Source: Bacteroidota bacterium
GTDB lineage: Bacteria; Bacteroidota; Bacteroidia; Flavobacteriales_C; GCA-002722245
Direction: 5' to 3'
NCBI GenBank assembly: GCA_026390935.1
Contig: JAPLEZ010000153.1
Span: forward strand, 4,052-68,051
Length of the DNA stretch: 64,000 nucleotides
Under the pieces are notes generated by a model. That model was not told where the DNA came from. It ran no database searches and saw only the letters and a list, made by a program, of their open reading frames with translations. Shown here one piece after another: positions 25,059-42,005 of the stretch. Each line of letters opens with the position of its first letter. Position 1 is the first letter of the stretch. The translations under genes were made by a program, and so were the position numbers.

Positions 25059-26947
25059 TGTGCGGCATTTACGGATATATCGGACTGAGTGACGACAGCG
25101 TTTTAAAAAAGATGAGCGCTGCCATGCGCCATCGCGGACCTGATGCGCAAGGATTTTGGGGAGAAGATCAGGTTTTTCTCGGACAAAATCGCTTGTCGAT
25201 TATTGATTTAAGTTCCTCTGCTACACAACCGCTCTTCAATGAAGATGGATCGGTGGTGCTGGTGTTCAACGGAGAGATATACAATTACAAAGAATTGCGT
25301 GAAGAATTGTTGCAGAAAGGACATGTTTTCAAAAGCGAATCCGATTCGGAAGTGCTCGTGCATCTGTACGAAGAAGAGGGAATCACCATGCTTTCCAGCA
25401 TTCGCGGAATGTTTGCTTTTGTGATTTACGATAGAAAGAAAAAGCAAACTTTTATAGCGCGCGATCATTTTGGCATTAAGCCTTTGTATATTTTTCAAAA
25501 GGCGGGACACTTCGCTTTTGCCTCTGAAATGAAGGCTTTGCAGCAACATCCCGAAGTAAAATTTGAAGTGAATCCAAAAGCAGTGTTGGATCATTTGTCT
25601 TTTTTATGGTGTCCTTTTCCAAAAACAATGGCCAGCGATGTAACAAAGCTGGAGCCTGGAACGGCGCTAATTTTAGAAGGCAGCGAAATAAAAAAGAAAT
25701 GGAATTTTTATGATATTCCTTACACGGGAAGACACATGGATATTTCGGAAAAGGATGCGGTGGCGGAATTGGATCGCTTGCTGGAAGCCAGCATCAGCGA
25801 GCAGTTGGTGAGTGATGTTCCACTGGGATTGTTTTTATCGGGAGGATTGGATTCTTCATTGATTGCCGCTTATGTGCGCAAACTGAAACCACAACAAAAA
25901 ATAAAAGCATTCACCATTGATATACAGGGGGCCGACATGGAAGGCAATCCCAATGATTTGCCTTATGCGCGCAAAGTGGCGAAAGATTTAAATATCGATT
26001 TAGAAGAAATTATTGTAACGCCTGCCGAGGTGTTGAAACACCTGGAAGAACTCACGTATATTTTGGATGAACCGCTTGCCGATCCTGCAGCAGTAAATGT
26101 TTTGCTGATCACTAAAATTGCCCGCGAAAAAGGATATATCGTTTTGTTATCGGGAGCAGGTGGAGATGATGTGTTTTCTGGTTACCGCCGCCATCAGGCG
26201 ATGCTACTCGATTTGAAGCTATTTAAATTACCGGCCTTCTCCAGAAAGCTGATGGAATTTGCAGGAAAAAAATTACCGGTTATCAATCCTAAAATCCGAA
26301 AAGCAAAAAAATATTTGCAAAATTTTGGTGCATCATTGAATGACAGATTGGTGTCGTATTATTGCTGGTTGGATGAAAGGAAAGCGCATTCGTTGTTGAC
26401 AAATTCTTTCAATGAGAAATTGAAAGATTACTCATCAATAAAAAATTTGGAGCTTGCTTTTCAAAATATTCCAAATGAAAAATCGGCACTGAATAAAATG
26501 CTCTATCTCGAAAGTAAATATTTTTTAGTGGATCACAACCTCAATTATTCCGATAAAATGAGTATGTGTAATTCTGTGGAAACCCGCGTTCCTTTTATGG
26601 ATTACCGCATTGTGGATTTTGCTGCGCAGTTGCCTGTTGAATTGAAGTTGCAAAACGGACAAGCGAAATACATCCTGAAAAAAGTAGCAGAAAAATATTT
26701 GGATAAAGATATCATCTACCGTAAAAAAACCGGATTTGGTGCTCCTTTGCGGGATTGGATCTTAAATGATTTCCAACCTCTTTTTGATAAATATCTCAAT
26801 AAAGAAATCATGCAAAGGCACGGTGTATTCAAACACGATGCAGTGTGGAAAATGATTAAAGACAATGCTTCCGGAAAAAGCGATTCGGCCTATAGTATCT
26901 TCTCCGTGATTTGTATTTCTATCTGGATGGAAAGATTTCAGAAATGA
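25058..26947 (+). CDS. Asparagine synthase (glutamine-hydrolysing)-family amidotransferase, second paralogue
   Basis: MCGIYGY, RGPDAQG, FLSGGLDSSLIAAY; 3' end overlaps next gene by 37 nt. Confidence 0.8.
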   Translation: MCGIYGYIGLSDDSVLKKMSAAMRHRGPDAQGFWGEDQVFLGQNRLSIIDLSSSATQPLFNEDGSVVLVFNGEIYNYKELREELLQKGHVFKSESDSEVLVHLYEEEGITMLSSIRGMFAFVIYDRKKKQTFIARDHFGIKPLYIFQKAGHFAFASEMKALQQHPEVKFEVNPKAVLDHLSFLWCPFPKTMASDVTKLEPGTALILEGSEIKKKWNFYDIPYTGRHMDISEKDAVAELDRLLEASISEQLVSDVPLGLFLSGGLDSSLIAAYVRKLKPQQKIKAFTIDIQGADMEGNPNDLPYARKVAKDLNIDLEEIIVTPAEVLKHLEELTYILDEPLADPAAVNVLLITKIAREKGYIVLLSGAGGDDVFSGYRRHQAMLLDLKLFKLPAFSRKLMEFAGKKLPVINPKIRKAKKYLQNFGASLNDRLVSYYCWLDERKAHSLLTNSFNEKLKDYSSIKNLELAFQNIPNEKSALNKMLYLESKYFLVDHNLNYSDKMSMCNSVETRVPFMDYRIVDFAAQLPVELKLQNGQAKYILKKVAEKYLDKDIIYRKKTGFGAPLRDWILNDFQPLFDKYLNKEIMQRHGVFKHDAVWKMIKDNASGKSDSAYSIFSVICISIWMERFQK

Positions 26948-27396
26948 TTTTTTTTAAAAAAATAAGCACGCATATTTTCCAATCGGATTTCGAGTTTAAA
27001 AAATTGTTGATCAAAGCCTTTTTTTATTCCATGACGGTGCGTTTCATGATGCTGTTTGTGAAATACAATCGTTATGAAAAGCGTTTGGGGAAAAGAGGCG
27101 AAACAGATACTTACACCTTAAGCGAAAAAGAGTTTGCCATTGCACACAACATCGCAAAAGCTTTGAACGGTGTGAGCAATTATACTTTGTGGGAAAGCAA
27201 ATGTATGGTGCAGGCCGTATCGGCAAAATGGATGCTGCAAAAATATTCTATCCCAAGCACCATTTATTTTGGAATAGCAAAAGATGAAGACAATAAAAGT
27301 AAATTAAAAGCGCACGCGTGGTTGAAAGTGGGCGACTGTGTGGTTACTGGTCGTGCCGGTCATGAGCAATATAAAGTGGTTAATTTTTATTCCTGA
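26911..27396 (+). CDS. Lasso peptide biosynthesis B2 protein (transglutaminase-like Cys protease, leader peptidase)
   Basis: 161 aa; WESKCMVQAV (catalytic Cys), KAHAWLKVGDCVV (His/Asp) - pattern of lasso B2/McjB C-domain. Confidence 0.65.
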   Translation: MYFYLDGKISEMIFFKKISTHIFQSDFEFKKLLIKAFFYSMTVRFMMLFVKYNRYEKRLGKRGETDTYTLSEKEFAIAHNIAKALNGVSNYTLWESKCMVQAVSAKWMLQKYSIPSTIYFGIAKDEDNKSKLKAHAWLKVGDCVVTGRAGHEQYKVVNFYS

Positions 27397-27728
27397 CTTT
27401 ATTCCTCACAAAAACATAGGGCCAGAAGAGAGATCTTCAGCGGGAATCAATTAATCTATTGGTTTACCCATTTAAATTACAAAAACTAAATTTGACAGAA
27501 ATATTTTTGTATAGATCCTGCAAAAAGTTCAGGATGACGTTGGCTAGGTATCTCCTGAAGATTATGGTTCACCTTGGTCATCCTGAACTTGTTTCAGGAT
27601 CTATAAAAGAACCCGCCAGGCACTTCATGCATAGTGGATGACGACGTGGTGAAGCGAAGAATCGGGTATGAAAAATGGAATGTTTAATTTTTATTCCTGA
27701 CTTTATTCCTCACAAAAACATAGGGCCA
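27381..27728. repeat. 44-bp direct repeat (27381-27424 and 27685-27728) flanking a ~260-bp insert that carries an imperfect 25-bp inverted repeat (27514-27538 / 27577-27601)
   Basis: Copies identical by eye; copy 1 encodes the C-terminus of B2 (+), copy 2 encodes the C-terminus of the nucleotidyltransferase (-). Confidence 0.6.
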
Positions 27729-28811
27729 AAACAAAGGATATAAAAACGATAAAGTTGCTGGCAAGGAAACATATTTGTACATAAAAAACGGATAGTTGTA
27801 CAAATAAAATAAGCGTGCTCTGAAAGATCCGCTATGTTCCACTTCCACTGCCAGTCGTTTTAATTTGTATGAAACACTTTCACGATTGATAGGAGGATCA
27901 ATGCTTCCAGGAATATATAAAATGAGTGATCTTGCTTTTTCCTTGCTTTTAAATGTGATTTTATTTTTTATTTCCGATGAATAATTTTTTGTTTTTAAAA
28001 GATCTTCAAGTAATGCAAAAGTAATGGACAATTGTTTATCAAATCCATGTTTTTCAGAAAGACGGATCAGATTATTTATTTCTACTTCGGAGGATTTTTT
28101 AACTAAGATATCTAGATCCACCAACCACATCAATCTTTCCCATGCGTGCTGAAATCCGTGCAATAAAAGATATGCTAAATATTGGGCGTTGCCCATGGTA
28201 GAAAATTCAGTGTTGCCAATTTTAATCGTTTGCTTTTCTTTCCAAATATCTTGGAAAGAGAGCGGTAAAATATAGTTGTTTCTGAAGAGTCGCCAATGAA
28301 TTTCAAGGTTTACTTTTTTTTCAGGATGATGGTATAAAAACTGGTCGAAGTTTTTAATCAATACTTCTTTTTGATTTTCTTTTATTTCAAATTCCGGACT
28401 CGTTCTTTTCCATCCAGCAGCAAGCAATATGTTGTTGATGCGAAAGAGCTCGTTGGGCGCAATTAACAAGTCGATATCCAAAGAAGGGCGACAAAGTTTA
28501 TTGCCATGTAAAATCTGGTTGAGCGCCAAGCCCTTTAACAGCAGAAACGAAAGCTGATTTTGTTGAAATAGCGCATTCAGCTCTAAGAGTGTTTTTTGTT
28601 GTCGGAAAGCCTTGCGAGAATCTGCAGTTATTTTTTGTTGCAAGCTATCTGTAAATTGATCAGCCAAGAATAGTTGCAGTTTGTGCTTCACTATGGTAGC
28701 GTGTTCAATAGAGTATGAGGTAGCATGATGGGTGTTGCCCAAACGAAATGCCAAGAGCTCAGTGAGATTCACAAAGTCTTCACAATAAGTTGATTTTAAC
28801 GCGGCGCTCAT
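27684..28811 (-). CDS. Uncharacterised nucleotidyltransferase-family protein (PF14907-like) of the type found in kinase-containing lasso peptide clusters
   Basis: SLDIDLLIAPNELFRINNILLAAGWKR ... HWRLF pattern; genomic context next to HPr-kinase-like gene. Confidence 0.5.
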   Translation of the reverse strand: MSAALKSTYCEDFVNLTELLAFRLGNTHHATSYSIEHATIVKHKLQLFLADQFTDSLQQKITADSRKAFRQQKTLLELNALFQQNQLSFLLLKGLALNQILHGNKLCRPSLDIDLLIAPNELFRINNILLAAGWKRTSPEFEIKENQKEVLIKNFDQFLYHHPEKKVNLEIHWRLFRNNYILPLSFQDIWKEKQTIKIGNTEFSTMGNAQYLAYLLLHGFQHAWERLMWLVDLDILVKKSSEVEINNLIRLSEKHGFDKQLSITFALLEDLLKTKNYSSEIKNKITFKSKEKARSLILYIPGSIDPPINRESVSYKLKRLAVEVEHSGSFRARLFYLYNYPFFMYKYVSLPATLSFLYPLFWPYVFVRNKVRNKN

Positions 28812-28897
28812 CTGCAGCTAAAATACATACTTTTATAGTTAACAAGTTGTGCTTCTCAAAATATTGTGTTTTAGCGTTAATGAATTACTTTTACGCC

Positions 28898-29791
28898 ATG
28901 GAAAAAAGATATATAGCGGGCGGAATAGTGATTGAAACCGACATTCACTTTCCTGAATTTGTGGAAAGCACTGAACAGCCAGATGTTCAGGTGGTTTACG
29001 GAAAAGTTCCCGAAGAAATTGAAAATCCAAAATCACAGCGGGTTTTGGTGCAGTCGAATGAAAATGAAGTTTTATTGAAAATGCCCGGTGTTGCCAGATA
29101 TTTGGTAGAAGGGGATTCAAAAATTACCATTGAACTGACTGATGAAAATCGTAAAAATGATGCCGAAAAATACGTCCTCACTTTTATCTTAGGTGTATTG
29201 TCCTTCAAAAAAGGATTTTTCCCTTTGCATGGTGGTGGCGTGGTTCACAAGGGCGAAGCCTACTTGTTCACGGGGCATTCAGGTGCGGGAAAATCAACTA
29301 CTTTGGCCGGATTGGCACAAAGAGGTTTTCAGCCTTTGGCCGATGATATCTCCAATTTTTTTGTTCATGACGGAAAAGTATTTGTTCATCCTTGTTTTCC
29401 CCGATTTAAATTGTGGAAGGACAGCATGCAAATGCTCAACAATGAAGGAAGTGGTGAATACAAATTGGGAACCGACATTGAAAAATATTTAGTTCCTGTT
29501 GGTGATGATTTTCCTACAGGACCAATTCCTGTGAAACGAATTTATTTGTTGCAGGAAGATCGTGACGACAAAACATTTTTTAAAGAAATAAAGGGGAAAG
29601 AGAAGTTGATGAAGCTGAAGCAAAACTCTTATAAACCTTGGATGGTAAAGGCATTTAATCTCAATCAGAAACATTTTTCATTGATGAATGATATCGCCGC
29701 TCAAGTGGAATTGAAGGAGTTTCATCGTCCTTTCGATAAAAAGAAAATTAACGAGATGTATGAATTTTTGATCAAAGATATTCAGGGATAA
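28898..29791 (+). CDS. HPr kinase/phosphorylase C-terminal-domain-like Ser/Thr kinase (lasso peptide kinase candidate)
   Basis: LFTGHSGAGKSTTLAGLAQRGFQPLADD (HprK P-loop + LADD); ATG at 28898 chosen over track start 28790, which overlaps the divergent gene. Confidence 0.7.
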   Translation: MEKRYIAGGIVIETDIHFPEFVESTEQPDVQVVYGKVPEEIENPKSQRVLVQSNENEVLLKMPGVARYLVEGDSKITIELTDENRKNDAEKYVLTFILGVLSFKKGFFPLHGGGVVHKGEAYLFTGHSGAGKSTTLAGLAQRGFQPLADDISNFFVHDGKVFVHPCFPRFKLWKDSMQMLNNEGSGEYKLGTDIEKYLVPVGDDFPTGPIPVKRIYLLQEDRDDKTFFKEIKGKEKLMKLKQNSYKPWMVKAFNLNQKHFSLMNDIAAQVELKEFHRPFDKKKINEMYEFLIKDIQG

Positions 29792-30658
29792 GTGCAAGGA
29801 AAAAACAACATAATTTGGCTTACGTCTTATCCTAAATCGGGCAATACCTGGATGCGCATGTTTTTGCATGCGTTGAAAACCGGTTGTGATCATGTGGAAA
29901 ATTTTGAACAGATTGAAGGTTCTGATGGCATTGCTTCTTCACGCTCTTTGTTGGATGAGTTATTGGGAATATATACTTCCGACATGGTGGATATTGAAAT
30001 TCAGAAATTAAGAGCAGATGCTTATCGCTTGTATTCATCTGAATTGACAGAAGAAATTATTGTGAAAGTTCATGATGCTGCTTTTCATGGCGGCATATTG
30101 ACTTTCCCTAAAGAGGTCACAAAAAAAGTAATTTACATAGTTAGAAATCCTTTTGATATGGTGGCTTCTTATGCTAATCATATGGGAAGCAGCATTGAAA
30201 AATCAGTGCAGTCTTTATGCGATGGAAATGGATTTTTGGCTGGAAATAAAAAGAAACTAAACAACCAAGTTACCCAATACATGGGCTCGTGGAGCGATCA
30301 CTACAACTCCTGGAAAAATTTGTATCGTGAAAATATTGAGGTGATTCGTTATGAAGATATGCTCAATGATTCCTTCGCTACTTTTAATAAAGTGGTGAAA
30401 TGCATCGGATGGGAGAAAACAAATGAGGAAATTGAAAAGGCAATAAGTGTGAGCGATTTTAAAAATTTGCGGTCGGTGGAAGAGCAGGCTGGATTTAGAG
30501 AGAAACCGAAAGAGACAAAACATTTTTTCCGACAAGGAAAATCCGGACAATGGAAAAATGAAATTACCCCTGAACAAGCGAAAACACTGGTCGACAGGCA
30601 TTTTTATACTTTGTTGGAATTGAATTATATTGATGCAGCGGGAAATATTTTGGTATGA
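29792..30658 (+). CDS. Sulfotransferase-domain protein (PAPS-dependent)
   Basis: IIWLTSYPKSGNTWMRMF (5'-PSB motif), IYIVRNPFDMVAS (3'-PB region). Confidence 0.7.
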   Translation: MQGKNNIIWLTSYPKSGNTWMRMFLHALKTGCDHVENFEQIEGSDGIASSRSLLDELLGIYTSDMVDIEIQKLRADAYRLYSSELTEEIIVKVHDAAFHGGILTFPKEVTKKVIYIVRNPFDMVASYANHMGSSIEKSVQSLCDGNGFLAGNKKKLNNQVTQYMGSWSDHYNSWKNLYRENIEVIRYEDMLNDSFATFNKVVKCIGWEKTNEEIEKAISVSDFKNLRSVEEQAGFREKPKETKHFFRQGKSGQWKNEITPEQAKTLVDRHFYTLLELNYIDAAGNILV

Positions 30659-32490
30659 GTGCTATATTCGGATATACAGGAAACACAGGTAGTGCAGAAG
30701 CTCTGTCAAAATCACTTAGGCATTGGCAACCTGATAGGGAAGCTATTTTGCAAGATGATAAGGTATCGCTTGGAGCATTGGAATTGTTCAATGTTCCTGA
30801 ATCCCCTTTAACTCCGCAACCCTACCAATACAAAGATTTGATAGTGGTTGCTGATTGCAGAATCGACAATAGGGAAGAGCTGGCAAAGGAATTTTCCATT
30901 AAGGATATTTCAGCCCACGCCGATATTGAATACATCGCTTTAGCCTATGAAAAATGGGGAAACGATGCGCCAAAATATTTAGTGGGCGATTTTGCTTTTG
31001 CAATTTGGGATAAAAAAAGTGATCAATTATTTGCTGCTCGAGATCATTTTGGAATTAAAACTTTGTACTATTCTGAAGTAAAAGGCGAACTTGTTTTTGC
31101 TTCCGAAATGAAAGGAATTTTGGCTTATCCTGGATTTAAAATTTCGTACAATGAAGAGTATATCATTAGTGAATTTTCAGCCTTAGAGCTTTCTGCCACC
31201 AGCACGTTTTACGACAATATTCATTTATTGCCTCAGGGATTTTCTTTGATCTGGAAAAATAAAATCGTGAGAAGCTCAGCCTATTGGACTTTTGGTGAAC
31301 GAACAGTAGAAATCCCTATAACTGTTGCCGAACAAGAAGCGGAGTTCAATCGCTTGGCCTATCAAAGCGTTCGAGACCGTTTGCGTTCGTTTAGAAGATT
31401 GGGTGCGGAGTCCAGCGGAGGATTGGATTCAACAGGTATTGCAGCCATTGCCATGGAAACTTTGGGCAAGGGAAAAGAGTTTTATTCTTTTGGTTATGGA
31501 AGGGCAGCCAATCCTACCACCGAGCAGGATGATAAGGATGACATGGACATCGTCCGGGATATGTGCGTAAAATACGGTATTGAAAAATATCTCACTGTTG
31601 TGAGTGAAAATGATTTGAATGGTCAGGAAATGCTTGATTTGATGATTGAGGTTTGCGATGATTACGAAAGCAACGGTGTGCCTTTAATGTCGTTGGCTCT
31701 GTTGAAGCACGCTGTGAAGAATGATGTTGGTGTGATGCTTTCTGGTTGGGCCGGAGATCAGGGAGTAACTTGTACAGCCGAAGGATTTTTTGAAAACTTG
31801 TCGAGGGAAAAAAGATACCGCGAGTTATGGAAAGATTTGCGCAGAAAACATTCGCGCTTAAAGGCACCATCCCGTTTTCTTTTTTACGTGTTGAAGGGTT
31901 GGAATAGAAATTCGTTTTATAAAAAGAACAATAAAGTAGAAAGATTGAATTTGGAGCTGGGTCCTTTAAAAGAGGAACTCATTGCTAAATACAATTTGAA
32001 AGAATTGAGAGGAGTAAACGCTTTCTTAAAGGATTGTTCCGACATTCAAACCTATTTCAAAAGAAATATACAGTATAAAGGTATTGAAAAAAGAACTTGT
32101 GATCATGTATTGATCGGTCAACATTTTCGCATTGAATACCGCTTTCCAATGCTAGATGTAAGATTGTTGGAGTACATTTATAGCTTGCCTTTTAGTACGA
32201 TAGCTCCGCAAGGGAAATCACGATATTTATTTAAAAAGTTGGTTCAACCTCTAGTGCCTCCTCGCCTAATCAGCATGCATAAAAGTTATGTTGCAACAAC
32301 ACCTTTTATCTTTAAGTTTAATGAAGCTTTTCTTCCCTTTGTGCGCGAGCAATTTTATGCTAACAGAAATCCGCTTTTAGATAAATATTTTGCGGTGCAA
32401 AAATTGGAAAAAGAAGGCTCTGAAAAGGAAGCTAAAAAAAGAAATAAAAGCTACCTAAAATTATACTTCTTTGCAAAGAAGATGAAATAG
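30655..32490 (+). CDS. Lasso peptide cyclase (C protein; asparagine-synthetase homologue lacking the Cys2 glutaminase nucleophile)
   Basis: Starts MSAIFGY (Ser in place of Cys), ARDHFGIKTLYY, ESSGGLDSTGIAAIA PP-loop; context with B1/B2/precursors/ABC. Confidence 0.7.
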   Translation: MSAIFGYTGNTGSAEALSKSLRHWQPDREAILQDDKVSLGALELFNVPESPLTPQPYQYKDLIVVADCRIDNREELAKEFSIKDISAHADIEYIALAYEKWGNDAPKYLVGDFAFAIWDKKSDQLFAARDHFGIKTLYYSEVKGELVFASEMKGILAYPGFKISYNEEYIISEFSALELSATSTFYDNIHLLPQGFSLIWKNKIVRSSAYWTFGERTVEIPITVAEQEAEFNRLAYQSVRDRLRSFRRLGAESSGGLDSTGIAAIAMETLGKGKEFYSFGYGRAANPTTEQDDKDDMDIVRDMCVKYGIEKYLTVVSENDLNGQEMLDLMIEVCDDYESNGVPLMSLALLKHAVKNDVGVMLSGWAGDQGVTCTAEGFFENLSREKRYRELWKDLRRKHSRLKAPSRFLFYVLKGWNRNSFYKKNNKVERLNLELGPLKEELIAKYNLKELRGVNAFLKDCSDIQTYFKRNIQYKGIEKRTCDHVLIGQHFRIEYRFPMLDVRLLEYIYSLPFSTIAPQGKSRYLFKKLVQPLVPPRLISMHKSYVATTPFIFKFNEAFLPFVREQFYANRNPLLDKYFAVQKLEKEGSEKEAKKRNKSYLKLYFFAKKMK

Positions 32491-34019: not shown

Positions 34020-34023
34020 TCGT

Positions 34024-34650
34024 TTATATCTCTTTGAGATAGTTAAATAGTTCAAAATCTTTTTTGTAAAGGTCTTTAACCATTTCAAGTAATTCATCAT
34101 CGTAATATTCCATGAAATTCAAGTGCTTAGAGCTATTGATTTCATGGAATTTTGGTTTTCCTAGGTTTAAAGCACTAAAGATGTGCTGAAGGTCATTGTT
34201 GAAGTTTTCCACCTTTCCTATAAAATCCATTTTGAGTTGGCGGTTTTCATTGACTAAGAATTCAAACTGCGGCAGCAAATGAATTTTTGATTCCAGATTT
34301 TCCTTACTAAGCATTTTTTTAATTTCGTCTCGATGTACTGAAGGACTTATGTTTTCAGTCTTTTTTATGAAGAAGTAATAGGAGATGAGTCTATCGTATG
34401 GATTGCGAACAAAAGCAAATTTATAATATTCGTTGATTAATGGCTTGAAGTAGGGTTCTACTTCCGTATACTTTAAATGACCATGTGGAATATCGGCCAG
34501 TTTTTTAAAAGGAAGTTTGCTCGACTTAAATAATGCAACCTGTTCAAGGTCCTTTTCAGACAGATGTTCCCGCAAAGCAAAGCGCACTGAATGTGTTCCT
34601 GTTTTAGGAATCGCAAAAAACATAAATTTATGTTGGTGGCTGATGATCAC
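34024..34650 (-). CDS. Sulfotransferase-family protein (second sulfotransferase of the cluster)
   Basis: FFAIPKTGTHSVRFAL (PKTGTT-type 5'-PSB motif), VRNPYDRLISYY. Confidence 0.6.
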   Translation of the reverse strand: MIISHQHKFMFFAIPKTGTHSVRFALREHLSEKDLEQVALFKSSKLPFKKLADIPHGHLKYTEVEPYFKPLINEYYKFAFVRNPYDRLISYYFFIKKTENISPSVHRDEIKKMLSKENLESKIHLLPQFEFLVNENRQLKMDFIGKVENFNNDLQHIFSALNLGKPKFHEINSSKHLNFMEYYDDELLEMVKDLYKKDFELFNYLKEI

Positions 34651-35240
34651 AATTCAAAGTCGGGTTTTGGAACATCATTGATTTCGGCATCCAGATATTC
34701 GAATATTAAGTGAATACGAGCTGTATTGCCGTCGTTTCTTACGGCGTGCATGCCTGAATTGTCCATTTCATAGGCTTTGCCTTTTTCAAAATAATAGTCG
34801 ATTCCTCTCACCGAAAAAACAACCTGCGGATTTGTAATTATTGGAATGTGAATTTTATGGGGAGGCCAGAAAATATAGTCAGAATCAATGTGTTCGGGAA
34901 TTATGGTACCCGGAACCATGCGCGCCAACATCACTCTCGGAAAAAATCCTTTTTTATAGCCATAAGGTTCTACGGCTTTTTGCATGATTGGCAGCAAAAC
35001 AGCTTTATACTTGTCCCACAATTCCAAATCGAAATAGACACAGGGACCTTCTAGTTTTTTACTCCAACGAAAATTGACGTGATTGACTTGTGATAGAGAG
35101 TATTTTTTATTTTGATTGACTTTAAAATCTTCCTCCTTATCCCATTCATATATCAATTCGGGAAGTATTTTAATTAAAGGGTTAATGTCAACTTCCCCTA
35201 AAAACCGCACGCTGTTTGTTTTGCAATTGTTTTTTTCCAT
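34647..35240 (-). CDS. Aspartyl/asparaginyl beta-hydroxylase-family (AspH/LpxO-like) Fe(II)/2-oxoglutarate oxygenase
   Basis: PEHIDSD...H...NSGMHAVRNDG...RIHLIF cupin-type metal-binding pattern; 197 aa soluble. Confidence 0.45.
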   Translation of the reverse strand: MEKNNCKTNSVRFLGEVDINPLIKILPELIYEWDKEEDFKVNQNKKYSLSQVNHVNFRWSKKLEGPCVYFDLELWDKYKAVLLPIMQKAVEPYGYKKGFFPRVMLARMVPGTIIPEHIDSDYIFWPPHKIHIPIITNPQVVFSVRGIDYYFEKGKAYEMDNSGMHAVRNDGNTARIHLIFEYLDAEINDVPKPDFEL

Positions 35241-35307: not shown

Positions 35308-35580
35308 ATGGACTTGAATAAAAAAATCTCCCGCAGCGATAATTATGTTTTCAATGAAGTGGATGGAGAGTTGGTAATGATGAACATTGAAACAGGTTCG
35401 TACGCGAGCTTAAATGAAACTGGGAAATCTATTTGGTTGCAGTTGGAAACAGCTAAAACATTGGATAGTGTGATTGAAGGTTTGATTGCCGAATATGAAA
35501 TTGATAGAGCTACTTGTGAGCAAGAAGTTTTTCCTTTCGTGGAAAAAATGGTAAAAGACGAAATACTGATTTTAGCTTAA
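35308..35580 (+). CDS. PqqD-like RiPP recognition element (lasso peptide B1 protein)
   Basis: 90 aa, NEVDGELVMMNIETGSYASLNETGKSIWLQLETAKTLDSVIEGLIAEYEID - PqqD family pattern. Confidence 0.65.
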   Translation: MDLNKKISRSDNYVFNEVDGELVMMNIETGSYASLNETGKSIWLQLETAKTLDSVIEGLIAEYEIDRATCEQEVFPFVEKMVKDEILILA

Positions 35581-35609: not shown

Positions 35610-36812
35610 CTATAACTCTGTAATTTTTATCTCCGATTTTAAATTCTTTAGAGCAAAATTCACTTTGAATTTATTTCCTTTTTGTGGTGAAATAAAATAC
35701 AGTTGAGAGCTCCAATGATTGCTGGGATCCACTTTTTGAGGATGCATAGAAAGAACGTTGTTGCTCGATAATTCTGTTTCAAAGTACAGTAGCATTCCGT
35801 TGAAAATTCCGGAATTTTCCAAAGAAAATATTTTTTCACAATCTTCTACTTTATCTACAGCGTTTGAAAAATCTAGATGAGCCAATTCTATTGGTTCAGA
35901 AAGCACTTTCCAGTTTTTAGTTTCAGTGCTATTGATGTTGATTTTTTGTAAAGTTTGTTTGTCGTTAAATTCAAGGAACGAGGAAAAATCAACACCATAC
36001 CATTCTTTCCAATGGACAATATTTTCTGGTGACAATTGATTTTGATGGTATTTTTTAAAATCTGCTTCAACCGCCATTCCAAATACTGTAATGCTTTTGG
36101 GAATTATAATCGCGATGGGAGTGAGTAATCTCTCTTTAGCATCTTTAAAGGTTTTAATAATGCCTTCCTGGAAGGGATCATTCCCAATGATTTCGCTTAC
36201 CAAAACGGTGGCTTTTTCGGGTAAGGTTATTTTTGTCGAATCGCCGTGGATCAAAGTTATTTTATCTTCCAGTCTGTTGGCTTTAAAAACGGCACTTGCC
36301 ACTTCAATAAATTCGGTCCTTTCAATGGCATACACATGCTTTGCTCCGGCCATGGCTGCAGTAGCGGCTAATATGCCATTGCCAGTTCCAATATCTAATA
36401 CAATGTCGTTTGGGGTTACGGTTTCACGAATGGCTTTTTGAAAAGCTAATGTTCGCGCTTTATCGTTCAACATTCGGATATGAACAGGAAAGGAATCAAA
36501 TTTTCCGCTATGGAAACCAAAGGTGTTTTTGCTTTCGTCTTTTACTTCAAAAAAGCCTTTTTTGAGTAAGTCGTGAAAATCAGCAGTAAATGTTATAAAG
36601 GAACTTTTATCTGTGCAGCTGTCAGCTATTTTTTTGAGTCCGTCTTCAATGCTAGTCCATTGTTGAAAAACCTCCACAAGTTTTAATACTTCATTTGATT
36701 TTTTTATCCTCAACTCCCCATTAGAAATAGTAAAGCCCGAATCGGTAAATTGAAAATTTACTTTTCTATTGAATCTAATGATGTCTTTTTTGTTTATTTT
36801 CATGGAAATCAA
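35610..36812 (-). CDS. Protein-arginine-N-methyltransferase-like class I SAM methyltransferase
   Basis: DIVLDIGTGNGILAATAAMAGAKHVYAIE...LVSEIIGN closely parallels PRMT1 motifs I/post-I/II (VLDVGSGTGIL...AGARKVIGIE...IISEWMGY). Confidence 0.5.
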   Translation of the reverse strand: MISMKINKKDIIRFNRKVNFQFTDSGFTISNGELRIKKSNEVLKLVEVFQQWTSIEDGLKKIADSCTDKSSFITFTADFHDLLKKGFFEVKDESKNTFGFHSGKFDSFPVHIRMLNDKARTLAFQKAIRETVTPNDIVLDIGTGNGILAATAAMAGAKHVYAIERTEFIEVASAVFKANRLEDKITLIHGDSTKITLPEKATVLVSEIIGNDPFQEGIIKTFKDAKERLLTPIAIIIPKSITVFGMAVEADFKKYHQNQLSPENIVHWKEWYGVDFSSFLEFNDKQTLQKININSTETKNWKVLSEPIELAHLDFSNAVDKVEDCEKIFSLENSGIFNGMLLYFETELSSNNVLSMHPQKVDPSNHWSSQLYFISPQKGNKFKVNFALKNLKSEIKITEL

Positions 36813-36862: not shown

Positions 36863-36988
36863 ATGGAAAATAAAATCAAAGAAGGAAAAAAAGTTTGGAT
36901 TAAACCTGAATTGGAAATTGAAGATGTGCTTTTAACCGAAGGCGGTCGAAATACTCCTGCTCCCGAGAACAGCACTCAGCGTACTTAG
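36863..36988 (+). CDS. Lasso peptide precursor A4 (divergent core): MENKIKEGKKVWIKPELEIEDVLLTE|GGRNTPAPENSTQRT
   Basis: Read by hand (41 aa); leader motif KKVWIKPELEIE; C-terminal RT. Confidence 0.6.
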   Translation: MENKIKEGKKVWIKPELEIEDVLLTEGGRNTPAPENSTQRT

Positions 36989-37021: not shown

Positions 37022-37963
37022 ATGTATGGCACTTTTCAAAGACTTCAGCTCAGTGAAATAGATGAGCAGCAAGTAAGTTTGTCGGAACGCTACATTTCCC
37101 CCAACATTCAAATATTTGAAAAGGCTTTTTGTGATTTTAGAAAAGAGGTAGATGAGATTTGGAAAGCGGGATTTTCATCAACAATAAGTGCCCAAAAAAA
37201 TTCCTTTTTAAAAGAGAAAATTGAACAAAGCAAGAAGAAATTATTTTCTTCGGAAATAGCTGCATATCCTGTTGGAATATGCTATCCTCTTTCAGAAATA
37301 GCATTTCAATTCCTTATGGAATTGGAAGTGCACGATCCAAAATCGGTATTTTATTCTTTGCGTGAATTCCTTGAAAAAGGCGGCATCATTAAAGTAATTT
37401 GGGGAGAAGTTCGGCATGAGTTTTTTCAAACTTCTTTGCAAATTGGAGAATGGTGTGTTGATGTTGCCAACGATACCGTGGATGTGAAAAAACCTAAGGT
37501 GGTGTGTTTTAAGCTTACTGCTTCCGATTGCCCTTTTCATGAAGTTTTATCAATAGAGCAATATGTGCAAATAAAGCGATCGTATCATGATTGCACCATT
37601 TATGTGAATACCATATTTCCGCATTTATTTCCTTACTTTCCACTGCTGGTGCTTCAAAATAAAGATGGAAAAATCAGTTTAGACACATCCATTTGTGTGC
37701 TTGATTTGACATTGAGCAAGGGTTATGACTTTGTTTTTTCTTCTTTGTTTCAACCATTGCCAAAAGAAGTTTTTGAGCGCATATCAATAAAGGTGGATCG
37801 TTTGCGCGCTAAGTATCAATATGCTGAATTGCTGGAGTGTAGAAATTGCGCACTTGAAGAATTGGCAAAACTAAGTGTTGCTCAAGTGTTAACCGATAAA
37901 GCCACCATGACCAAAGTTAAAGCCACTGTGAAATACATTAATTTTATGGTGAATGCTTTGTAA
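37022..37963 (+). CDS. Hypothetical protein inside lasso cluster (no recognisable motif)
   Basis: 313-aa ORF, good coding appearance, co-oriented between precursor A4 and ABC exporter. Confidence 0.3.
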   Translation: MYGTFQRLQLSEIDEQQVSLSERYISPNIQIFEKAFCDFRKEVDEIWKAGFSSTISAQKNSFLKEKIEQSKKKLFSSEIAAYPVGICYPLSEIAFQFLMELEVHDPKSVFYSLREFLEKGGIIKVIWGEVRHEFFQTSLQIGEWCVDVANDTVDVKKPKVVCFKLTASDCPFHEVLSIEQYVQIKRSYHDCTIYVNTIFPHLFPYFPLLVLQNKDGKISLDTSICVLDLTLSKGYDFVFSSLFQPLPKEVFERISIKVDRLRAKYQYAELLECRNCALEELAKLSVAQVLTDKATMTKVKATVKYINFMVNAL

Positions 37964-38001: not shown

Positions 38002-39660
38002 ATGCACAATCTTAAATCCATACTTTCATTTTTCAAATTGATGCTTTCGCATTTCAGGTGGAAGATTGTATTGATTGTGTTGTTCGGTATACTTTTTTCC
38101 TTTTTTCAGGGCGTAGGAATTGTAATGATTATTCCACTGCTGGAATCTTTTCAGAACAATGGAAATTCCATGTTTACCAAGGTGTTTGAGTTTTTGGGCT
38201 GGAGTGGTGGATTGAATCAATTGTTGTTGATTTATTTTTTGATTTTACTTTTTTATGCGCTCTTCAAAGCTTTGCAAATTTTATACACGCAACGCACGAT
38301 CGCACGTTTTTCCAATCAATTTGCAGTAGATGCCATGCAGCATTTGCTAACGGCCAATTGGGAATTTTATTTAAAAGTACCTTCTTCACAAATCATTAAT
38401 TTATTGAAAACCGAAAGTCGTTCGGTGAAAACATTGGCGCATTTTCTTTTTCAGGCAATGCAGGGCGCAATATTAATTGCCATTCAATTGTTTTTTGCTT
38501 GCTGGATTTCTGTTAAGCTCACAGCACTTTTGCTGGTGATACTGGTATTTTTATTTCTCATTCAGCGCTTTGTTTTTAAAGCCAATTACAATTTAGGAAA
38601 GGGAAATGTGGGCTTGTCGGAATTTTTACAAAAATATCTCAACGAGACTTTTAAAGGAATAAAACTATTGAAGTTACACCGACTGGAACTGAAAAAAGGT
38701 AAAGAGTACGAGGAACAAATGGAAAGAATTTACCAAAATGAAATTAAGAAGTCGACGATGGATGCTTTGAGCGATTTGCTGTACACCTTGTCGGGAGCGC
38801 TCATCATTATTTTAATGATAGGATTCAGCATTTCTTACAATTTACTTTCTATTACGTCCTTATTGGTTTTACTGGTTTTATTTTCCAGGGTAATTTCACA
38901 GTCTACAGCTCTTGTTCAAACTACAGGTTATATTGTGAATTTAATTCCATCTTTTAATCGCTTTGCTGAAATAGTTGATTTGGCGAAGGAAAGCGCACAG
39001 CAACCTTCAGAGAAGTTGGAAAGAAGAAATATTGCATCATTGGAATTGAAAAACATTCACTTCTCTTTTGGAGAGAAAAAAATATTGAACGATCTCAACA
39101 TCAAATTTGAAAAAGGAAAATTTTATGTGCTCACTGGTGCAAGCGGAGTGGGAAAAACCATTACTTCCGATTTGATTTGCGGATTGATTTCGCCTCAGCA
39201 AGGAGAAATCATCATTGATGGAAATATAGTGAGTATAGAGCTCTTAAAAAGCTATCAGGCGTCTATCGGTTATGTTTTGCAGGATACTGTTTTGTTTGGC
39301 ACTTCCATCCGCAACAACATCACTTTCATGGAAAATTATTCCGATGAACAAATTTTAAATGCTGCACATAAAGCCGGATTGAAAAGTCTTTTGGAAAAAT
39401 TGCCCGAAGGATTAGATGCTATTGTGAAAGAAGACAATCGCGGATTTTCGGGAGGTGAAATGCAACGCATTGCCATTGCCCGTGCGCTCATTCGCAAAAC
39501 TCCTTTGATTATTTTGGATGAGGTAACCAACGCTTTGGATAGAAAAAACGAAGACATTATTTTGGCTACGATCAACGAAATAAAAAAAGACAGCATTGTG
39601 ATTTTAATCACGCATAAAGAGTATTTGTTTGATTTGGCCGACGAAGTAGTACGTTTGTAA
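38002..39660 (+). CDS. ABC transporter, fused permease/ATP-binding protein (lasso peptide exporter D candidate)
   Basis: N-terminal 6-TM region; Walker A GASGVGKT, signature FSGGEMQRIAIARAL, Walker B LIILDEVTNALD. Confidence 0.8.
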   Translation: MHNLKSILSFFKLMLSHFRWKIVLIVLFGILFSFFQGVGIVMIIPLLESFQNNGNSMFTKVFEFLGWSGGLNQLLLIYFLILLFYALFKALQILYTQRTIARFSNQFAVDAMQHLLTANWEFYLKVPSSQIINLLKTESRSVKTLAHFLFQAMQGAILIAIQLFFACWISVKLTALLLVILVFLFLIQRFVFKANYNLGKGNVGLSEFLQKYLNETFKGIKLLKLHRLELKKGKEYEEQMERIYQNEIKKSTMDALSDLLYTLSGALIIILMIGFSISYNLLSITSLLVLLVLFSRVISQSTALVQTTGYIVNLIPSFNRFAEIVDLAKESAQQPSEKLERRNIASLELKNIHFSFGEKKILNDLNIKFEKGKFYVLTGASGVGKTITSDLICGLISPQQGEIIIDGNIVSIELLKSYQASIGYVLQDTVLFGTSIRNNITFMENYSDEQILNAAHKAGLKSLLEKLPEGLDAIVKEDNRGFSGGEMQRIAIARALIRKTPLIILDEVTNALDRKNEDIILATINEIKKDSIVILITHKEYLFDLADEVVRL

Positions 39661-39674
39661 AAATTTAATTTCTG

Positions 39675-40847
39675 TTGATTATGAATTTTTCTGAAGTGAT
39701 TCATCCTGTTACGGTAAAAGAATTTTTTGACGACTATTACGAAAAAAAACCTTTGTACATTGCACGAAACAATCCTTCGTATTACCATACTTTCCTGAGT
39801 GTGCAGGAGATTGATGCTTATTTACAATTGAAGCAAACTTATGCGCCAAATGTGAAAATGGCTTTTCAAGGAAAGGAAGTTTCTCCATTGTTGTTTTGTG
39901 ATCCCGCAGGTTCTGTTGTGCCATTTAGAGTGAACCCTGATAAAATGCTCGACTTGTTCAAACAGGGTTACACCATTAAATACGATAAGTTGCACCAAAC
40001 CTATCCTCCCTTGGCGCAAAAGGTATCGGCCATTGAGCAGGAGATTGGCATTAAAATTAGAACGAGTTTGTACATTACTCCAGAAAATTCACAGGGATAC
40101 GGTGTTCATACCGACAGGCACGATGTGTTGGCGTTGCAAATTAATGGTGCAAAAATTTGGAAAGTGAAATCTTCCACAGAAATTTTGCCTTCGGTTTACC
40201 AAACCAATATTGCAGTGAATTGGACGGAAGAAGGTGTTCAGGAAATTTGTTTGAAGGCGGGAGATTTTTTTTACTGTCCGCGTGGATTAGCGCACGATGT
40301 GTTTACCAAAGATCAGTCGTCCATACACTATACCCTCGGATTCAAACCCGTGTACGGCTACAATCTCGTTGAAAAATTAAGCGCCTTGGCTTATAAAAAT
40401 TCTTTTTTCAGAAGTGCCGTTCCAAATAATTTTTCATCTGTTGCAGACAGGGATTCATACCAAAAGAGATGGCAAAAAGAATTGGAAGAAATAATTGCGT
40501 TGATGAATTTTGATGATGTTGATGTTTTGGGAGAAGAAGCGACAAAGCAGTCCCAAATAAATTTTGAAGCCGGCAGGTTTATTGCGCAAATTTATCAGCC
40601 TTCACTGAGCGATAAATTTGTTCTTTGTTCAATACCTTGGGAATTAACTTTTACAAAAGTGGCTTGCAGAATTGATATTCTTGGTGGAAAGCACGACTTT
40701 CCTTATTTGCTAAAAGAGTTTTTTGAGAATATTAAAAGCGATACGCTATTCTCTACTTCGCTGGATAAATTGAACTTAAATGATGCTCAAAAGTTGAAAT
40801 TGATCAAAAGATTATTGAAAATACAATTGATTCGAAAGGTTGATTAG
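39675..40847 (+). CDS. JmjC/cupin-4-family Fe(II)/2OG oxygenase (RoxA/YcfD-like ribosomal-oxygenase fold)
   Basis: GYGVHTDRHDVLALQINGAKIWKV (HxD) ... CPRGLAHDV (distal His). Confidence 0.55.
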   Translation: MIMNFSEVIHPVTVKEFFDDYYEKKPLYIARNNPSYYHTFLSVQEIDAYLQLKQTYAPNVKMAFQGKEVSPLLFCDPAGSVVPFRVNPDKMLDLFKQGYTIKYDKLHQTYPPLAQKVSAIEQEIGIKIRTSLYITPENSQGYGVHTDRHDVLALQINGAKIWKVKSSTEILPSVYQTNIAVNWTEEGVQEICLKAGDFFYCPRGLAHDVFTKDQSSIHYTLGFKPVYGYNLVEKLSALAYKNSFFRSAVPNNFSSVADRDSYQKRWQKELEEIIALMNFDDVDVLGEEATKQSQINFEAGRFIAQIYQPSLSDKFVLCSIPWELTFTKVACRIDILGGKHDFPYLLKEFFENIKSDTLFSTSLDKLNLNDAQKLKLIKRLLKIQLIRKVD

Positions 40848-40985
40848 GTGTGGTACTCAGCGTCTTCCCTTATGTTCAATATACCACCACCTAGCGTGGA
40901 ATCTAGCTCTAAATCAGTCATTGCAGGAGCAACCCATTGTTTTTTTTCTGGTGTCATAAGAATTAATTTTTTCAAAGATAGTAAT

Positions 40986-42005
40986 TTATAGTTTAGGATA
41001 CTGCATGCTGATGCAGTGAATGGAGCCATGCTGCTTGATTAGCGGAACACTGTTGATGGAAATAATCTCTTTATCAGGGAATATGCTTTGCATTATTTTC
41101 AGTGCCTCTGCGTCTTTGCTGGAATTGTAAATTGGAAACAAAATCGCATCATTCATAATTAAAAAATTGGCGTAGGTGGCCGGAAGTCTTTCGCCATCGT
41201 CATCATAAGCTGCATCAGCCATAGGGAGGGCAACGAGTTTGTATTTTTCACCTTGCAAATTAGTGCAACGTTGCAGTTCTTCTTCCATCTTGCTCAATTC
41301 GCTGTAATGCTCATCGTTGGGATCATCGCACTTCACATAGGCAATGGTATTTTCGTTGCAGAAACGTGCGAGGGTATCAATGTGACTGTCGGTATCGTCT
41401 CCAGCTAGATAACCATGATTGATCCAGATGACTTTTTCAACGTGCAGCAATTCCTTGAGTAGCTTTTCAATTTCGGTGATGGTCCATTGAGGATTACGGT
41501 TTTCTTCCAGCAAACATTCGCTGGTAGTCATTAGCACGCCTTGTCCGTCTACTTCCAAGGATCCGCCTTCTAGCACAATGTGGTTTAAATCTTTTATTGT
41601 CCAGGAGGAAGGAAAAGCTTTTGCATCATAAAGTTTTTGAGTGATGGCGCTGTCTTTTTCAGCAGCGAATTTTTTGCCCCAGCCGTTGAATTGAAAATCT
41701 AAAACAACAGGCTTTCCATTTTCTAAAATGGTAATTCCGCCGTGATCTCTTGCCCAGGTATCGTTCACATCACATTGGTAAATTTCAATGTTGTTGAGGT
41801 TACAATGTTGCACATAAGATTTTACTTCTTCCACATTTTGTGCGGCGATGATGAGTTTTTGACGCTTTGCAATTTCAAAAGCAATTTTTTTGTAGCACTC
41901 TTGAACCTCATCCCAAATGTCGGCCCAGTCGGTGTTTTGGTGAGGCCAGGTGAGTTGTACCGCGCTTTGCGGAAACCATTCGGGGGGGAAGAAGTTATGA
42001 TTCAT
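40986..42005 (-). CDS. Agmatine deiminase / Porphyromonas-type peptidylarginine deiminase family protein
   Basis: N-term FFPPEWFPQSAVQLTWPHQNTDW (cf. AguA MPAEWEPH..TWMxWP), C-term GSIHCISMQ (catalytic Cys, cf. GGIHCITQQ). Confidence 0.75.
   Translation of the reverse strand: MNHNFFPPEWFPQSAVQLTWPHQNTDWADIWDEVQECYKKIAFEIAKRQKLIIAAQNVEEVKSYVQHCNLNNIEIYQCDVNDTWARDHGGITILENGKPVVLDFQFNGWGKKFAAEKDSAITQKLYDAKAFPSSWTIKDLNHIVLEGGSLEVDGQGVLMTTSECLLEENRNPQWTITEIEKLLKELLHVEKVIWINHGYLAGDDTDSHIDTLARFCNENTIAYVKCDDPNDEHYSELSKMEEELQRCTNLQGEKYKLVALPMADAAYDDDGERLPATYANFLIMNDAILFPIYNSSKDAEALKIMQSIFPDKEIISINSVPLIKQHGSIHCISMQYPKL

Follow-up and report, generated by a model that had tools for sequence, protein, structure and literature searches.

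The locus described here raises the question of which of its many tailoring-type genes belong to one peptide pathway and what they would do to its peptides. It lies in a 64,000-nt stretch of DNA, hereafter the window, which was analysed as a whole (NCBI GenBank assembly GCA_026390935.1, contig JAPLEZ010000153.1, positions 4,052 to 68,051 of the forward strand). The host is an uncultured, Flavobacteriales-like member of the Bacteroidetes, and the G+C content is about 38% across the window. An earlier note, made from the sequence alone, had described a lasso-peptide cluster with a split B protein, a kinase, a nucleotidyltransferase, sulfotransferases, several unannotated precursor genes and many further tailoring-type genes. 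All the open reading frames (ORFs) that it named are present where it placed them, and our profile searches agreed with this general description. We consider, with a probability of roughly 0.8, that the region of about 26944-40957 carries what looks like a working lasso-peptide biosynthetic gene cluster with several precursors, of the paeninodin/pseudomycoidin type, that is, the type with a kinase, a nucleotidyltransferase and a sulfotransferase. This reading draws on gene identities, motifs, synteny and co-occurrence seen in the DNA, from which every chemical step and substrate residue named below is inferred.

Core biosynthetic genes

The core of the cluster consists of the two parts of a split B protein, a cyclase and an ATP-binding cassette (ABC) exporter.

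26911..27396, plus strand: B2 leader peptidase, a transglutaminase-like Cys protease (PF13471, 73.5 bits; NF033537 lasso_biosyn_B2, 81.9 bits, cutoff 33)
30655..32490, plus strand: lasso cyclase, an Asn-synthetase homologue (Asn_synthase, PF00733, 102 bits, and GATase_7)
35308..35580, plus strand: B1, a PqqD-like recognition element for peptides that are made by ribosomes and modified after translation (RiPPs) (PF05402, 60.7 bits, cutoff 23.4; NF033536 lasso_PqqD_Bac, 74 bits, cutoff 80)
38002..39660, plus strand: ABC exporter, or D protein (ABC_membrane and ABC_tran; fused transmembrane and ATPase domains, no peptidase domain)

The N-terminus of the cyclase, MSAIFGY, indicated that Cys2 is missing, and the SGGLDS PP-loop is intact and invariant among the homologues. 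Its best NCBIfam family was the lasso cyclase NF033535 (lass_lactam_cya), with 267.7 bits. The profile searches supported the B1, B2, cyclase and ABC assignments made earlier, the cyclase and B1 with scores under the NCBIfam lasso cutoffs. Judged from homologue lengths, the true start of B2 is probably an internal ATG at about 26944. The window holds one B1, one B2 and one cyclase for the five precursors listed below.

For comparison, 41 loci (numbered from L001) were collected via the cyclase and scored by tblastn with every window protein as query. The cyclase clade comprised about 48 Bacteroidota proteins of at least 38% identity, and the next relatives were about 30% identical. A core set of B2, nucleotidyltransferase, kinase, the sulfotransferase ST1, cyclase, B1 and ABC exporter was found in about 30 of 38 loci from Bacteroidota, Gammaproteobacteria and other phyla, and each of these loci had precursors that bear W/YxxP and end in Ser or Thr. 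B2 homologues were found in about 25 loci. The ABC exporter was 62-79% identical among the loci of the Flavobacteriales/Chryseobacterium subclade described below.

Several related loci carry one or two extra, divergent cyclase-like genes beside the main cyclase (25-27% identical, with a degenerate GATase domain), together with additional precursors (L001, 8317-9987; L006, 516-3076; L039, 6299-10008; L041, 6362-10008). At 10001-12014 of L040, a cyclase 51% identical to that of the window accompanies a precursor of 41 aa that has WxxP and a final Ser; genes for B1, B2, the kinase and the exporter are all missing within 10 kb, the neighbours belong to fatty-acid metabolism, and this is apparently an orphan cyclase-precursor pair. 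In the window itself, the Asn synthase gene at 25058-26947, upstream of B2, was considered as a second cyclase and rejected: its product keeps Cys2 and scores 484 bits with the true AsnB model (cutoff 267).

Precursor peptides

The earlier note had listed four precursor genes of 39-41 aa. These four are real, and a fifth on the minus strand, A5, had been missed. The ring acceptors given here are those that we predict.

33312..33437, plus strand: precursor A1, leader METKNEIEVKKVWVKPELKVEELNITA and core VKGTNILEGGPYRT; Glu8 as ring acceptor; the core begins with Val
33472..33591, plus strand: precursor A2, leader ending in KKVWVKPELKVEEVEVTN and core GGGARVRESGTYRT; Glu8 as ring acceptor
33894..34019, plus strand: precursor A3, leader MENKNEQEIKKVWVKPEVKVEEVDVTN and core GGGPGLREGGTYRS; Glu8 as ring acceptor
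36863..36988, plus strand: precursor A4, leader MENKIKEGKKVWIKPELEIEDVLLTE and core GGRNTPAPENSTQRT; Glu9; located between the gene for a methyltransferase resembling protein arginine methyltransferases (PRMTs) and that for a 313-aa protein
40844..40957, minus strand: precursor A5 (new, 37 aa), leader MTPEKKQWVAPAMTDLELDSTL and core GGGILNIREDAEYHT; Glu9; convergent with the gene for a JmjC oxygenase, the stop codons overlapping
33596..33805, minus strand: pseudogene fragment of the sulfotransferase ST2 (duplicated 3' end), whose translation matches the ST2 C-terminus

All five precursors have in common the KKxWxxP leader, Thr(-2), a Glu as the eighth or ninth core residue and, at the C-terminus, Thr (four of them) or Ser (one). 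The first core residue is Gly in four and Val in A1, whose Val-Lys core start was also seen in precursors of L004. When the window was translated in six frames, the pattern KK.W..P...[ST]-stop matched five times, always inside the cluster, with a mean of 0.0 matches in 200 codon-block shuffles. Conservation of the precursors in related genomes had been named as a check, and we found about 50 homologous precursors in the related loci, all of them ending in Ser or Thr and having W/YxxP and Glu or Asp at core position 7-9. Only A4 matched an NCBIfam model, the paeninodin-family lasso peptide NF033524 (19.2 bits, E 7e-4, cutoff 27). The leader Trp stands at -15 in A2, A3 and A4, which matches the register of W-15 in the PbaA leader, a position at which Trp is near-invariant in paeninodin-like precursors (PMC13381572). 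The predicted cores have 14-15 residues, namely a ring of 8-9 residues and a tail of 6.

A2 and A3 were created by a tandem duplication of 284 nt, which copied a precursor gene and the 3' end of the convergent ST2 gene. The two copies (33481-33764 and 33909-34192) form a direct repeat, are 90% identical and lie 428 nt apart; this looks like a recent precursor amplification. By position, the precursors fall into three classes: the genes of class a neighbour ST2 and the methyltransferase next to the cyclase, those of class b neighbour the PRMT-like and 313-aa genes, and those of class c converge with the JmjC gene. The class b position is also occupied by precursors in L006, L007 and L008, and orthologues of A5 have the same position in L003, L006, L007, L008 (two copies) and L041. 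The cores of class c share the ring Glu and then a second Glu three or four residues further on.

Several points weigh against the reading of this region as a lasso cluster. The cyclase and B1 remain below their NCBIfam lasso cutoffs (267.7 bits for NF033535 with a cutoff of 525, and 74 bits for NF033536 with a cutoff of 80), and the profile support of the kinase described below is weak. The core of A1 begins with Val, which is unusual at position 1. In addition, no product is known, and a lasso of 14 residues would undercut the range of 15-30 aa of the characterised lasso peptides (PMC6993621).

Kinase, nucleotidyltransferase, sulfotransferases and associated enzymes

Three genes of the widespread core and three genes of narrower distribution encode enzymes that are expected to decorate the peptides. 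The methyltransferases use S-adenosylmethionine (SAM), the sulfotransferases 3'-phosphoadenosine 5'-phosphosulfate (PAPS) and the oxygenases 2-oxoglutarate.

27684..28811, minus strand: PF14907 nucleotidyltransferase, PsmN-like (NTP_transf_5, 148.2 bits), recurring in related loci
28790..29791, plus strand: HprK-like peptide kinase (PF07475, 19.8 bits; TIGR04352, 26.8 bits; both under cutoff)
29792..30658, plus strand: PAPS-type sulfotransferase ST1 (Sulfotransfer_1, 100.6 bits; PKSGNTW and RNPFD motifs in the translation)
32491..33261, plus strand: class-I SAM methyltransferase (Methyltransf_25/31/11), beginning directly after the cyclase stop
34024..34650, minus strand: sulfotransferase ST2, Sulfotransfer_2 family (PF03567, 76.2 bits), overlapping the AspH-like gene by 4 nt
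34647..35240, minus strand: 2-oxoglutarate oxygenase of the Asp/Asn beta-hydroxylase family, AspH-like (PF05118, Asp_Arg_Hydrox, 44.5 bits)

The profile matches agreed with the earlier assignment of two PAPS-type sulfotransferases, a PF14907 nucleotidyltransferase and an AspH-type oxygenase, and PAPS motifs can be recognised in both sulfotransferases. The label of HPr-kinase-like kinase stood in so far as the best solved-structure match was HPr kinase, across the motif hGggV..G.SGaGKS..L..RG..l.aDD (P-loop/ADD), and was weakened by the profile scores below cutoff. By homologue length the kinase likely starts at an internal ATG at about 28898, giving 297 aa, and homologues were found in nearly all the related lasso loci. 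ST1 is part of the widespread core, its homologues being 30-81% identical in about 30 loci. The CheR-type label given to the class-I methyltransferase was not borne out: the match to CheR was partial (34 bits, profile positions 27-80 of 195, the SAM-binding region), and generic class-I models scored higher. This gene is present in L001, L003, L004 and L017 and absent from the Chryseobacterium loci.

AspH-like homologues of 63-81% identity were found in L004 and L011, and weaker ones in L019, L036 and L038. The pair of ST2 and AspH-like genes is present in L004 and L011, and L038 has weaker matches to both (26% and 38% identity). The 4-nt overlap of the two genes implies translational coupling, which suggests that a hydroxylation may be followed by a sulfation.

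PRMT-like methyltransferase

PRMTs are usually regarded as eukaryotic enzymes, and the cluster contains a bacterial gene whose product resembles them.

35610..36812, minus strand: PRMT-like methyltransferase, extended at the N-terminus by an extra domain of about 100 aa (PrmA as best Pfam match, and PRMT_C, 35 bits)

The true start of this gene is probably at about 36803, as judged from an internal ATG and the homologue lengths. All the top solved-structure matches were PRMTs (PRMT7 at 3e-26, Hmt1, PRMT1 and CARM1; E from 1e-26 to 1e-15). SAM motif I reads VLDIGTGNGILA, the double-E loop reads SEIIGNDPFQEG, and an NHW loop resembles the THW loop; E207 and E216 of the double-E loop and W367 are invariant in 24 members of the family. 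The earlier identification as a PRMT-like enzyme was thus confirmed by motif I, the double-E loop, the THW-type loop and the C-terminal beta-barrel. An exhaustive HMMER search gave 494 representative clusters at E <=1e-30, mostly of about 400 aa including the extra N-terminal domain.

A metagenome scan gave 80 PRMT-like loci, of which 31 were at least 8 kb long. Fourteen of these 31 had at least two lasso markers, the markers counted being B1, B2, cyclase and HprK-like kinase. One family member is located in a different, YxxP-type lasso cluster (L043). Lys or Arg occurred in the last six precursor residues in 19 of 22 PRMT-positive and in 0 of 11 PRMT-negative lasso loci (Fisher p ~2e-6), a comparison that uses hand-picked precursor ORFs and phylogenetically non-independent loci. 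This co-occurrence points to N-methylation of a basic residue beside the C-terminal Ser/Thr. For the peptides of the window, most likely the enzyme N-methylates Arg13/14 in the Y/Q-R-T/S motif.

Other results speak against this assignment or blur it. Many PRMT-associated precursors in other phyla have Lys, not Arg, near the C-terminus, and L006 and L041 have a PRMT-like gene yet no basic residue in the last six positions of their detected precursors; together they make the target residue uncertain. The family members in L042 and L044 stand in contexts without RiPP genes. It also could not be demonstrated, by hhalign or Pfam, that the extra domains of the PRMT-like and JmjC proteins have the fold of a recognition element: alignment of the PRMT N-terminal and JmjC C-terminal domains with B1 gave probabilities of 0.2% and 0.6%, and neither domain had a Pfam match at E up to 10. 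A single-sequence AlphaFold2 model of the PRMT-like protein had a confidence score (pLDDT) of 35 and was unusable.

As a separate observation, PRMT-like genes are found in many high-GC lasso clusters (L045-L124, for example L060, L076, L077, L085 and L095, and also L043). The kinases there are HprK-like, and the precursors, of the YxxPxLxxYGxVxxLT type, often end in [K/R]-x(0-2)-T/S.

JmjC oxygenase and 313-aa protein

Two further genes accompany the PRMT-like gene in the subclade.

39675..40847, plus strand: JmjC 2-oxoglutarate oxygenase of the ribosomal-oxygenase type with a C-terminal domain of about 95 aa (PF08007, JmjC_2, 81.4 bits)
37022..37963, plus strand: conserved 313-aa protein with an invariant YPxGxC motif, no family matched

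The JmjC gene probably starts at about 39681 (internal ATG, homologue lengths). Its product matched the solved structures of NO66, MINA53, YxbC and YcfD, and the HxD...H iron triad is intact, with H-T-D and G-L-A-H aligning with the triad of NO66, and is kept in 7 homologues; together with PF08007, the triad upholds the JmjC/cupin-4 assignment made before. The convergent, overlapping pair of the JmjC gene and a class c precursor is conserved in 6 loci. Probably the substrate of the oxygenase is the overlapping precursor A5, in which it would hydroxylate a side chain.

The stop codons overlap at 40844-40847 of the window, 18192-18202 of L003 and 16435-16438 of L041. This overlap leaves no space for a terminator between the two genes, and their transcripts would be antisense at the 3' ends. 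At 1-3839, L003 also has a second, separate lasso set, made up of a PqqD protein, a B2, a cyclase, a precursor of 55 aa whose leader contains YKKPVL, and a JmjC_2 gene of its own, whose product is 34% identical to the JmjC protein of the window. It shows that JmjC_2 recurs as a lasso accessory with both W- and Y-type leaders.

Two homologues of the 313-aa protein were found by a first search and 11 by a profile search. It possibly has a papain/transglutaminase-like fold, to judge from a weak resemblance. Among the loci of the cyclase family, the PRMT-like, 313-aa and JmjC genes are limited to a Flavobacteriales/Chryseobacterium subclade (L001, L003, L006, L007, L008 and L041), in which their order and orientation are shuffled between loci, yet they are always within the cluster; the 313-aa gene is additionally present in L039, there without the other two, and L041 has the PRMT-like and JmjC genes without it.

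One pathway or several

The earlier note implied a single, hyper-decorated product, and this is doubtful: the PRMT-like, 313-aa and JmjC genes and the AspH/ST2 pair each occur independently in the related loci, and the accessory genes are modular, each beside a different class of precursor. Probably the different precursor classes receive different subsets of the modifications.

The same arrangement could be taken further, as two or three RiPP sub-pathways that are partly independent of each other, have one leader type in common and form a mosaic. A1-A3 would then be true lassos, and A4, with the 313-aa and PRMT-like proteins, and/or A5, with the JmjC protein, would be processed otherwise and may stay linear, as do the linear polyphosphorylated peptides of Bacillota described below. 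The window has a single B1, B2 and cyclase, however, and all five precursors share the WxxP, Thr(-2) and Glu8/9 geometry expected for one B1/B2/cyclase set. The three positional classes with their different neighbours fit the mosaic, as do the independence of the modules in L039 and L041 and the related loci with 2-3 cyclase-like genes. It has also a precedent in co-located pathways with shared leader motifs (PMC13381572), and the 313-aa protein, with its weak resemblance to Cys-protease/transglutaminase folds, could be a second peptidase; a second recognition element, in contrast, was not detected when the extra PRMT and JmjC domains were searched with hhalign and Pfam. We regard such a mosaic as rather unlikely and keep to one multi-precursor lasso cluster.

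The deiminase gene at the cluster edge

The ninth of the tailoring genes counted by the earlier note lies at the right edge of the cluster.

40986..42005, minus strand: agmatine-deiminase-type gene (PAD_porph, 397.7 bits), judged not to be a cluster member

It could be supposed that all nine enzymes, this one included, decorate the same peptides in one lasso pathway, with conversion of Arg to citrulline as in citrulassin. The gene shares its strand with A5 and lies 28 nt upstream of it, with the same layout in L003, and adjoins the cluster in L001; the cores are Arg-rich; and lasso citrullination that depends on a peptidylarginine deiminase (PAD) has a precedent (PMC9266682). Among the 8 related clusters with the right flank covered, however, the deiminase was found in only three (window, L001 and L003) and was absent from L006, L007, L008, L039 and L041. 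In L006, L007 and L041 the JmjC-A5 pair directly abuts the gene for asparaginyl-tRNA synthetase (AsnRS), and in L008 a second class c precursor intervenes. Between loci the deiminase is 83-88% identical, like AsnRS (85-89%), whereas the cluster genes are 31-81% identical.

The best solved-structure matches of the deiminase were 1zbr (a small P. gingivalis homologue, 388 bits) and the agmatine deiminases of H. pylori (291 bits) and C. jejuni (274 bits); its solved-structure matches did not include any true peptidyl-arginine deiminase of the PPAD type. The NCBIfam agmatine-deiminase scores of 235 and 224 bits are below the cutoffs, which counts in favour of the citrulline reading and makes the agmatine specificity a prediction. 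A TAnnTTTG box (TATCTTTG in the window) was found 23 nt upstream of the A5 ATG in the window and in L003, with 0.05 expected per 90 nt; we take this motif to be the Bacteroidetes -7 promoter consensus. With this promoter-like box between the deiminase stop and the A5 start, A5 need not be co-transcribed with the deiminase, and co-transcription as evidence for membership was rejected on the box and on the synteny across loci.

The deiminase keeps its place beside A5 in three loci, which leaves a small probability for a role of it. We nevertheless consider citrullination by this enzyme, and with it nine enzymes acting on the same peptides, improbable: its patchy presence, its AsnRS-like conservation and its similarity to agmatine deiminases suggest that it is most likely a housekeeping neighbour with no tailoring role. 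Eight tailoring-type genes were therefore retained from the nine listed earlier. The comparative checks were valuable here, as what drew the eye most in the original claim probably lies outside the system.

That the PRMT-like, JmjC and 313-aa genes are also unrelated neighbours, for example modifiers of ribosomal proteins like PrmA and YcfD, is very improbable. In its favour, the JmjC protein has hydroxylases of ribosomal proteins as its nearest characterised relatives, the methyltransferase matches PrmA best in Pfam, some family members stand in contexts without RiPP genes, and the cluster adjoins the translation gene AsnRS. Against it, the three genes alternate with B1, the precursors and the ABC gene and were kept inside through several rearrangements, and the more distant loci of the cyclase family lack them. 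The JmjC gene overlaps a precursor gene in 6 loci; PRMT-like genes occur in unrelated lasso clusters of other phyla far above chance, and their presence tracks the precursor sequence.

Proposed pathway

For the single multi-precursor cluster that we prefer, we propose that B1, as known from its family, would bind the shared KKxWxxP(E)L leader of A1-A5. By analogy with PadeK and PsmK, the HprK-like kinase would phosphorylate the invariant C-terminal Ser/Thr of the linear precursor. B2 would cleave after the residue that follows Thr(-2), and the Cys2-less cyclase would join the new N-terminus to Glu8 or Glu9, giving a lasso of 14-15 residues with an 8-9-membered ring and a tail of 6 residues. 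The PF14907 enzyme may put a sugar or a nucleotide on the phosphate, by analogy with PsmN, and the ABC protein would export the product. The kinase, nucleotidyltransferase and ST1 would represent the ancestral decorations of the C-terminal region, to which the PRMT-like and JmjC enzymes, the AspH-ST2 pair, the class-I methyltransferase and the 313-aa protein would have been added as modules, probably acting on subsets of the peptides. Bulky decorations at the C-terminus may hold the short tails threaded.

A wider proposal, which we put forward tentatively and at somewhat less than even odds, concerns the bacterial PRMT-fold family as a whole. One of its main natural roles would be the leader-guided N-methylation of Arg or Lys beside the phosphorylated C-terminus of kinase-type lassos. 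In the Flavobacteriales lineage a JmjC enzyme with a dedicated precursor, two sulfotransferases, an AspH-like enzyme and a new Cys enzyme would come in addition, and the resulting lassos would be smaller (14-15 aa) and more heavily decorated than any seen so far, with phospho, glycosyl, sulfo, methyl-Arg and hydroxy groups.

Genomic surroundings

The cluster is flanked by a polysaccharide-synthesis locus on one side and by housekeeping genes (AsnRS) on the other. The upstream region of about 12200-26947 is an O-antigen/capsule-like locus with a DegT aminotransferase, WbqC, a GDP-mannose dehydratase, three glycosyltransferases and methyltransferases, and it includes two true, Cys2-containing AsnB amidotransferases (20415-22226 and 25058-26947). 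The stop codon of the last AsnB gene overlaps the probable B2 start by 4 nt, as ATGA at 26944-26947, and the identical junction is found in L004.

On the minus strand at 42033-44874, genes for an extracytoplasmic function (ECF) sigma factor and an anti-sigma-like membrane protein (750-762 aa) flank the cluster, in the window as in L003. The pair is located inside the cluster in L008 (16332-19112, between the ABC and JmjC genes) and right after the ABC gene in L039 (14914-17718), and it may regulate the cluster. A scan for sigma-70 promoters and terminators gave a site count not above that of shuffles, the sigma-70 model being uninformative for Bacteroidetes. About 6 kb downstream of the cluster lies a resistance-nodulation-division (RND) efflux system (47701-53621; outer-membrane factor, HlyD-like adaptor and AcrB-like pump), for which no evidence of a link to lasso export was found.

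Beside the lasso clusters of L039 (2563-6052 and 17780-21787) and L041 (1-2916), Nif11-type leader peptides stand with a P450 and a conserved protein of 644-669 aa that has no Pfam match. This looks like a second, unrelated RiPP-like system.

Comparison with known systems

As a type, the cluster is known. What is new relative to the literature searched, which was incomplete, is its accessory set, the very short cores of its five precursors and the broad association of PRMT-like enzymes with lasso clusters: we found no description of them there, nor of any link between lasso peptides and a PRMT-type or JmjC-type enzyme. The suggestion of the earlier note that the architecture is undescribed applies to the accessory set; the core type is familiar, and the PRMT-like enzymes proved to be a widespread lasso accessory and are not peculiar to the window. 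The secondary modifications known from lasso peptides are of only about a dozen kinds, and to our knowledge none of them is Arg/Lys N-methylation by a PRMT fold, hydroxylation by a JmjC enzyme of the ribosomal-oxygenase type, or sulfation. A bacterial PRMT clade that is often found in lasso clusters would offer the PRMT field simple peptide substrates and RiPP engineers a new tailoring activity. The five natural short-core substrates would be useful for questions of the minimal size of a threaded lasso and of C-terminal decorations as a plug.

The paeninodin cluster of Paenibacillus dendritiformis (PadeA/C/B1/B2/D/K) has, like the window, a split B1/B2, an Asn-synthetase-type cyclase, an ABC exporter, an HprK-like kinase and a precursor that ends in Ser/Thr and has a WxxP leader. 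The window differs in its Bacteroidetes host, its five precursors, its shorter cores (14-15 aa), the Glu instead of Asp acceptor and six extra genes (PRMT-like, JmjC, AspH-like, second sulfotransferase, class-I methyltransferase and 313-aa protein). In paeninodin-type pathways the precursor's C-terminal Ser is the residue that the kinase phosphorylates, and related Firmicutes clusters have been noted to contain a sulfotransferase and a nucleotidyltransferase (PMC8498205). Pseudomycoidin of Bacillus pseudomycoides shares with the window a kinase (PsmK) and a PF14907-type nucleotidyltransferase (PsmN). PsmN puts a hexose on the phospho-Ser of pseudomycoidin, and bulky C-terminal groups have been proposed to keep the tail inside the ring (PMC6993621). 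For pseudomycoidin, neither PRMT-like or JmjC genes nor AspH-like or sulfotransferase genes are described, and its similarity to the window proteins is at the family level only.

Citrulassin of Streptomyces is a lasso peptide with a modified Arg; its PAD works on peptidyl-Arg and has its gene far away from the cluster (PMC9266682). The deiminase of the window is unlike this enzyme, since it is similar to small agmatine deiminases and does not follow the cluster in its conservation. With the eukaryotic type I/III PRMTs (PRMT1/Hmt1, PRMT7 and CARM1), the PRMT-like enzyme shares the Rossmann motif I, the double-E loop, the THW-type loop and the PRMT_C beta-barrel; it differs from them in being bacterial, about 400 aa long and located in RiPP clusters, with an extra N-terminal domain and NHW for THW, and its substrate may be Arg or Lys of a small peptide. 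The JmjC enzyme resembles NO66, MINA53 and YcfD in the JmjC fold, the HxD...H triad and a C-terminal domain after the catalytic domain. Its gene is paired and overlapping with that of a 37-aa precursor, and in contrast to these ribosomal oxygenases it probably does not act on ribosomal proteins. Bacterial PF08007 homologues in RiPP-like contexts have been mentioned in passing (PMC12710340).

The linear polyphosphorylated peptides (LPP) of Bacillota, which are encoded beside paeninodin-like clusters, have much in common with the window, including an HprK kinase, a nucleotidyltransferase, an MsbA-like exporter, a location in or beside a capsular polysaccharide locus and several precursor types with [Y/W]xxP (PMC13381572). 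Unlike the LPP systems, the window has no SipW-like signal peptidase and no second recognition element that hhalign or Pfam could detect in the extra PRMT and JmjC domains, and all five of its precursors look lasso-competent. The adjacency of the polysaccharide locus parallels the Bacillota paeninodin-like clusters (PMC13381572) and hints at a shared biological role.

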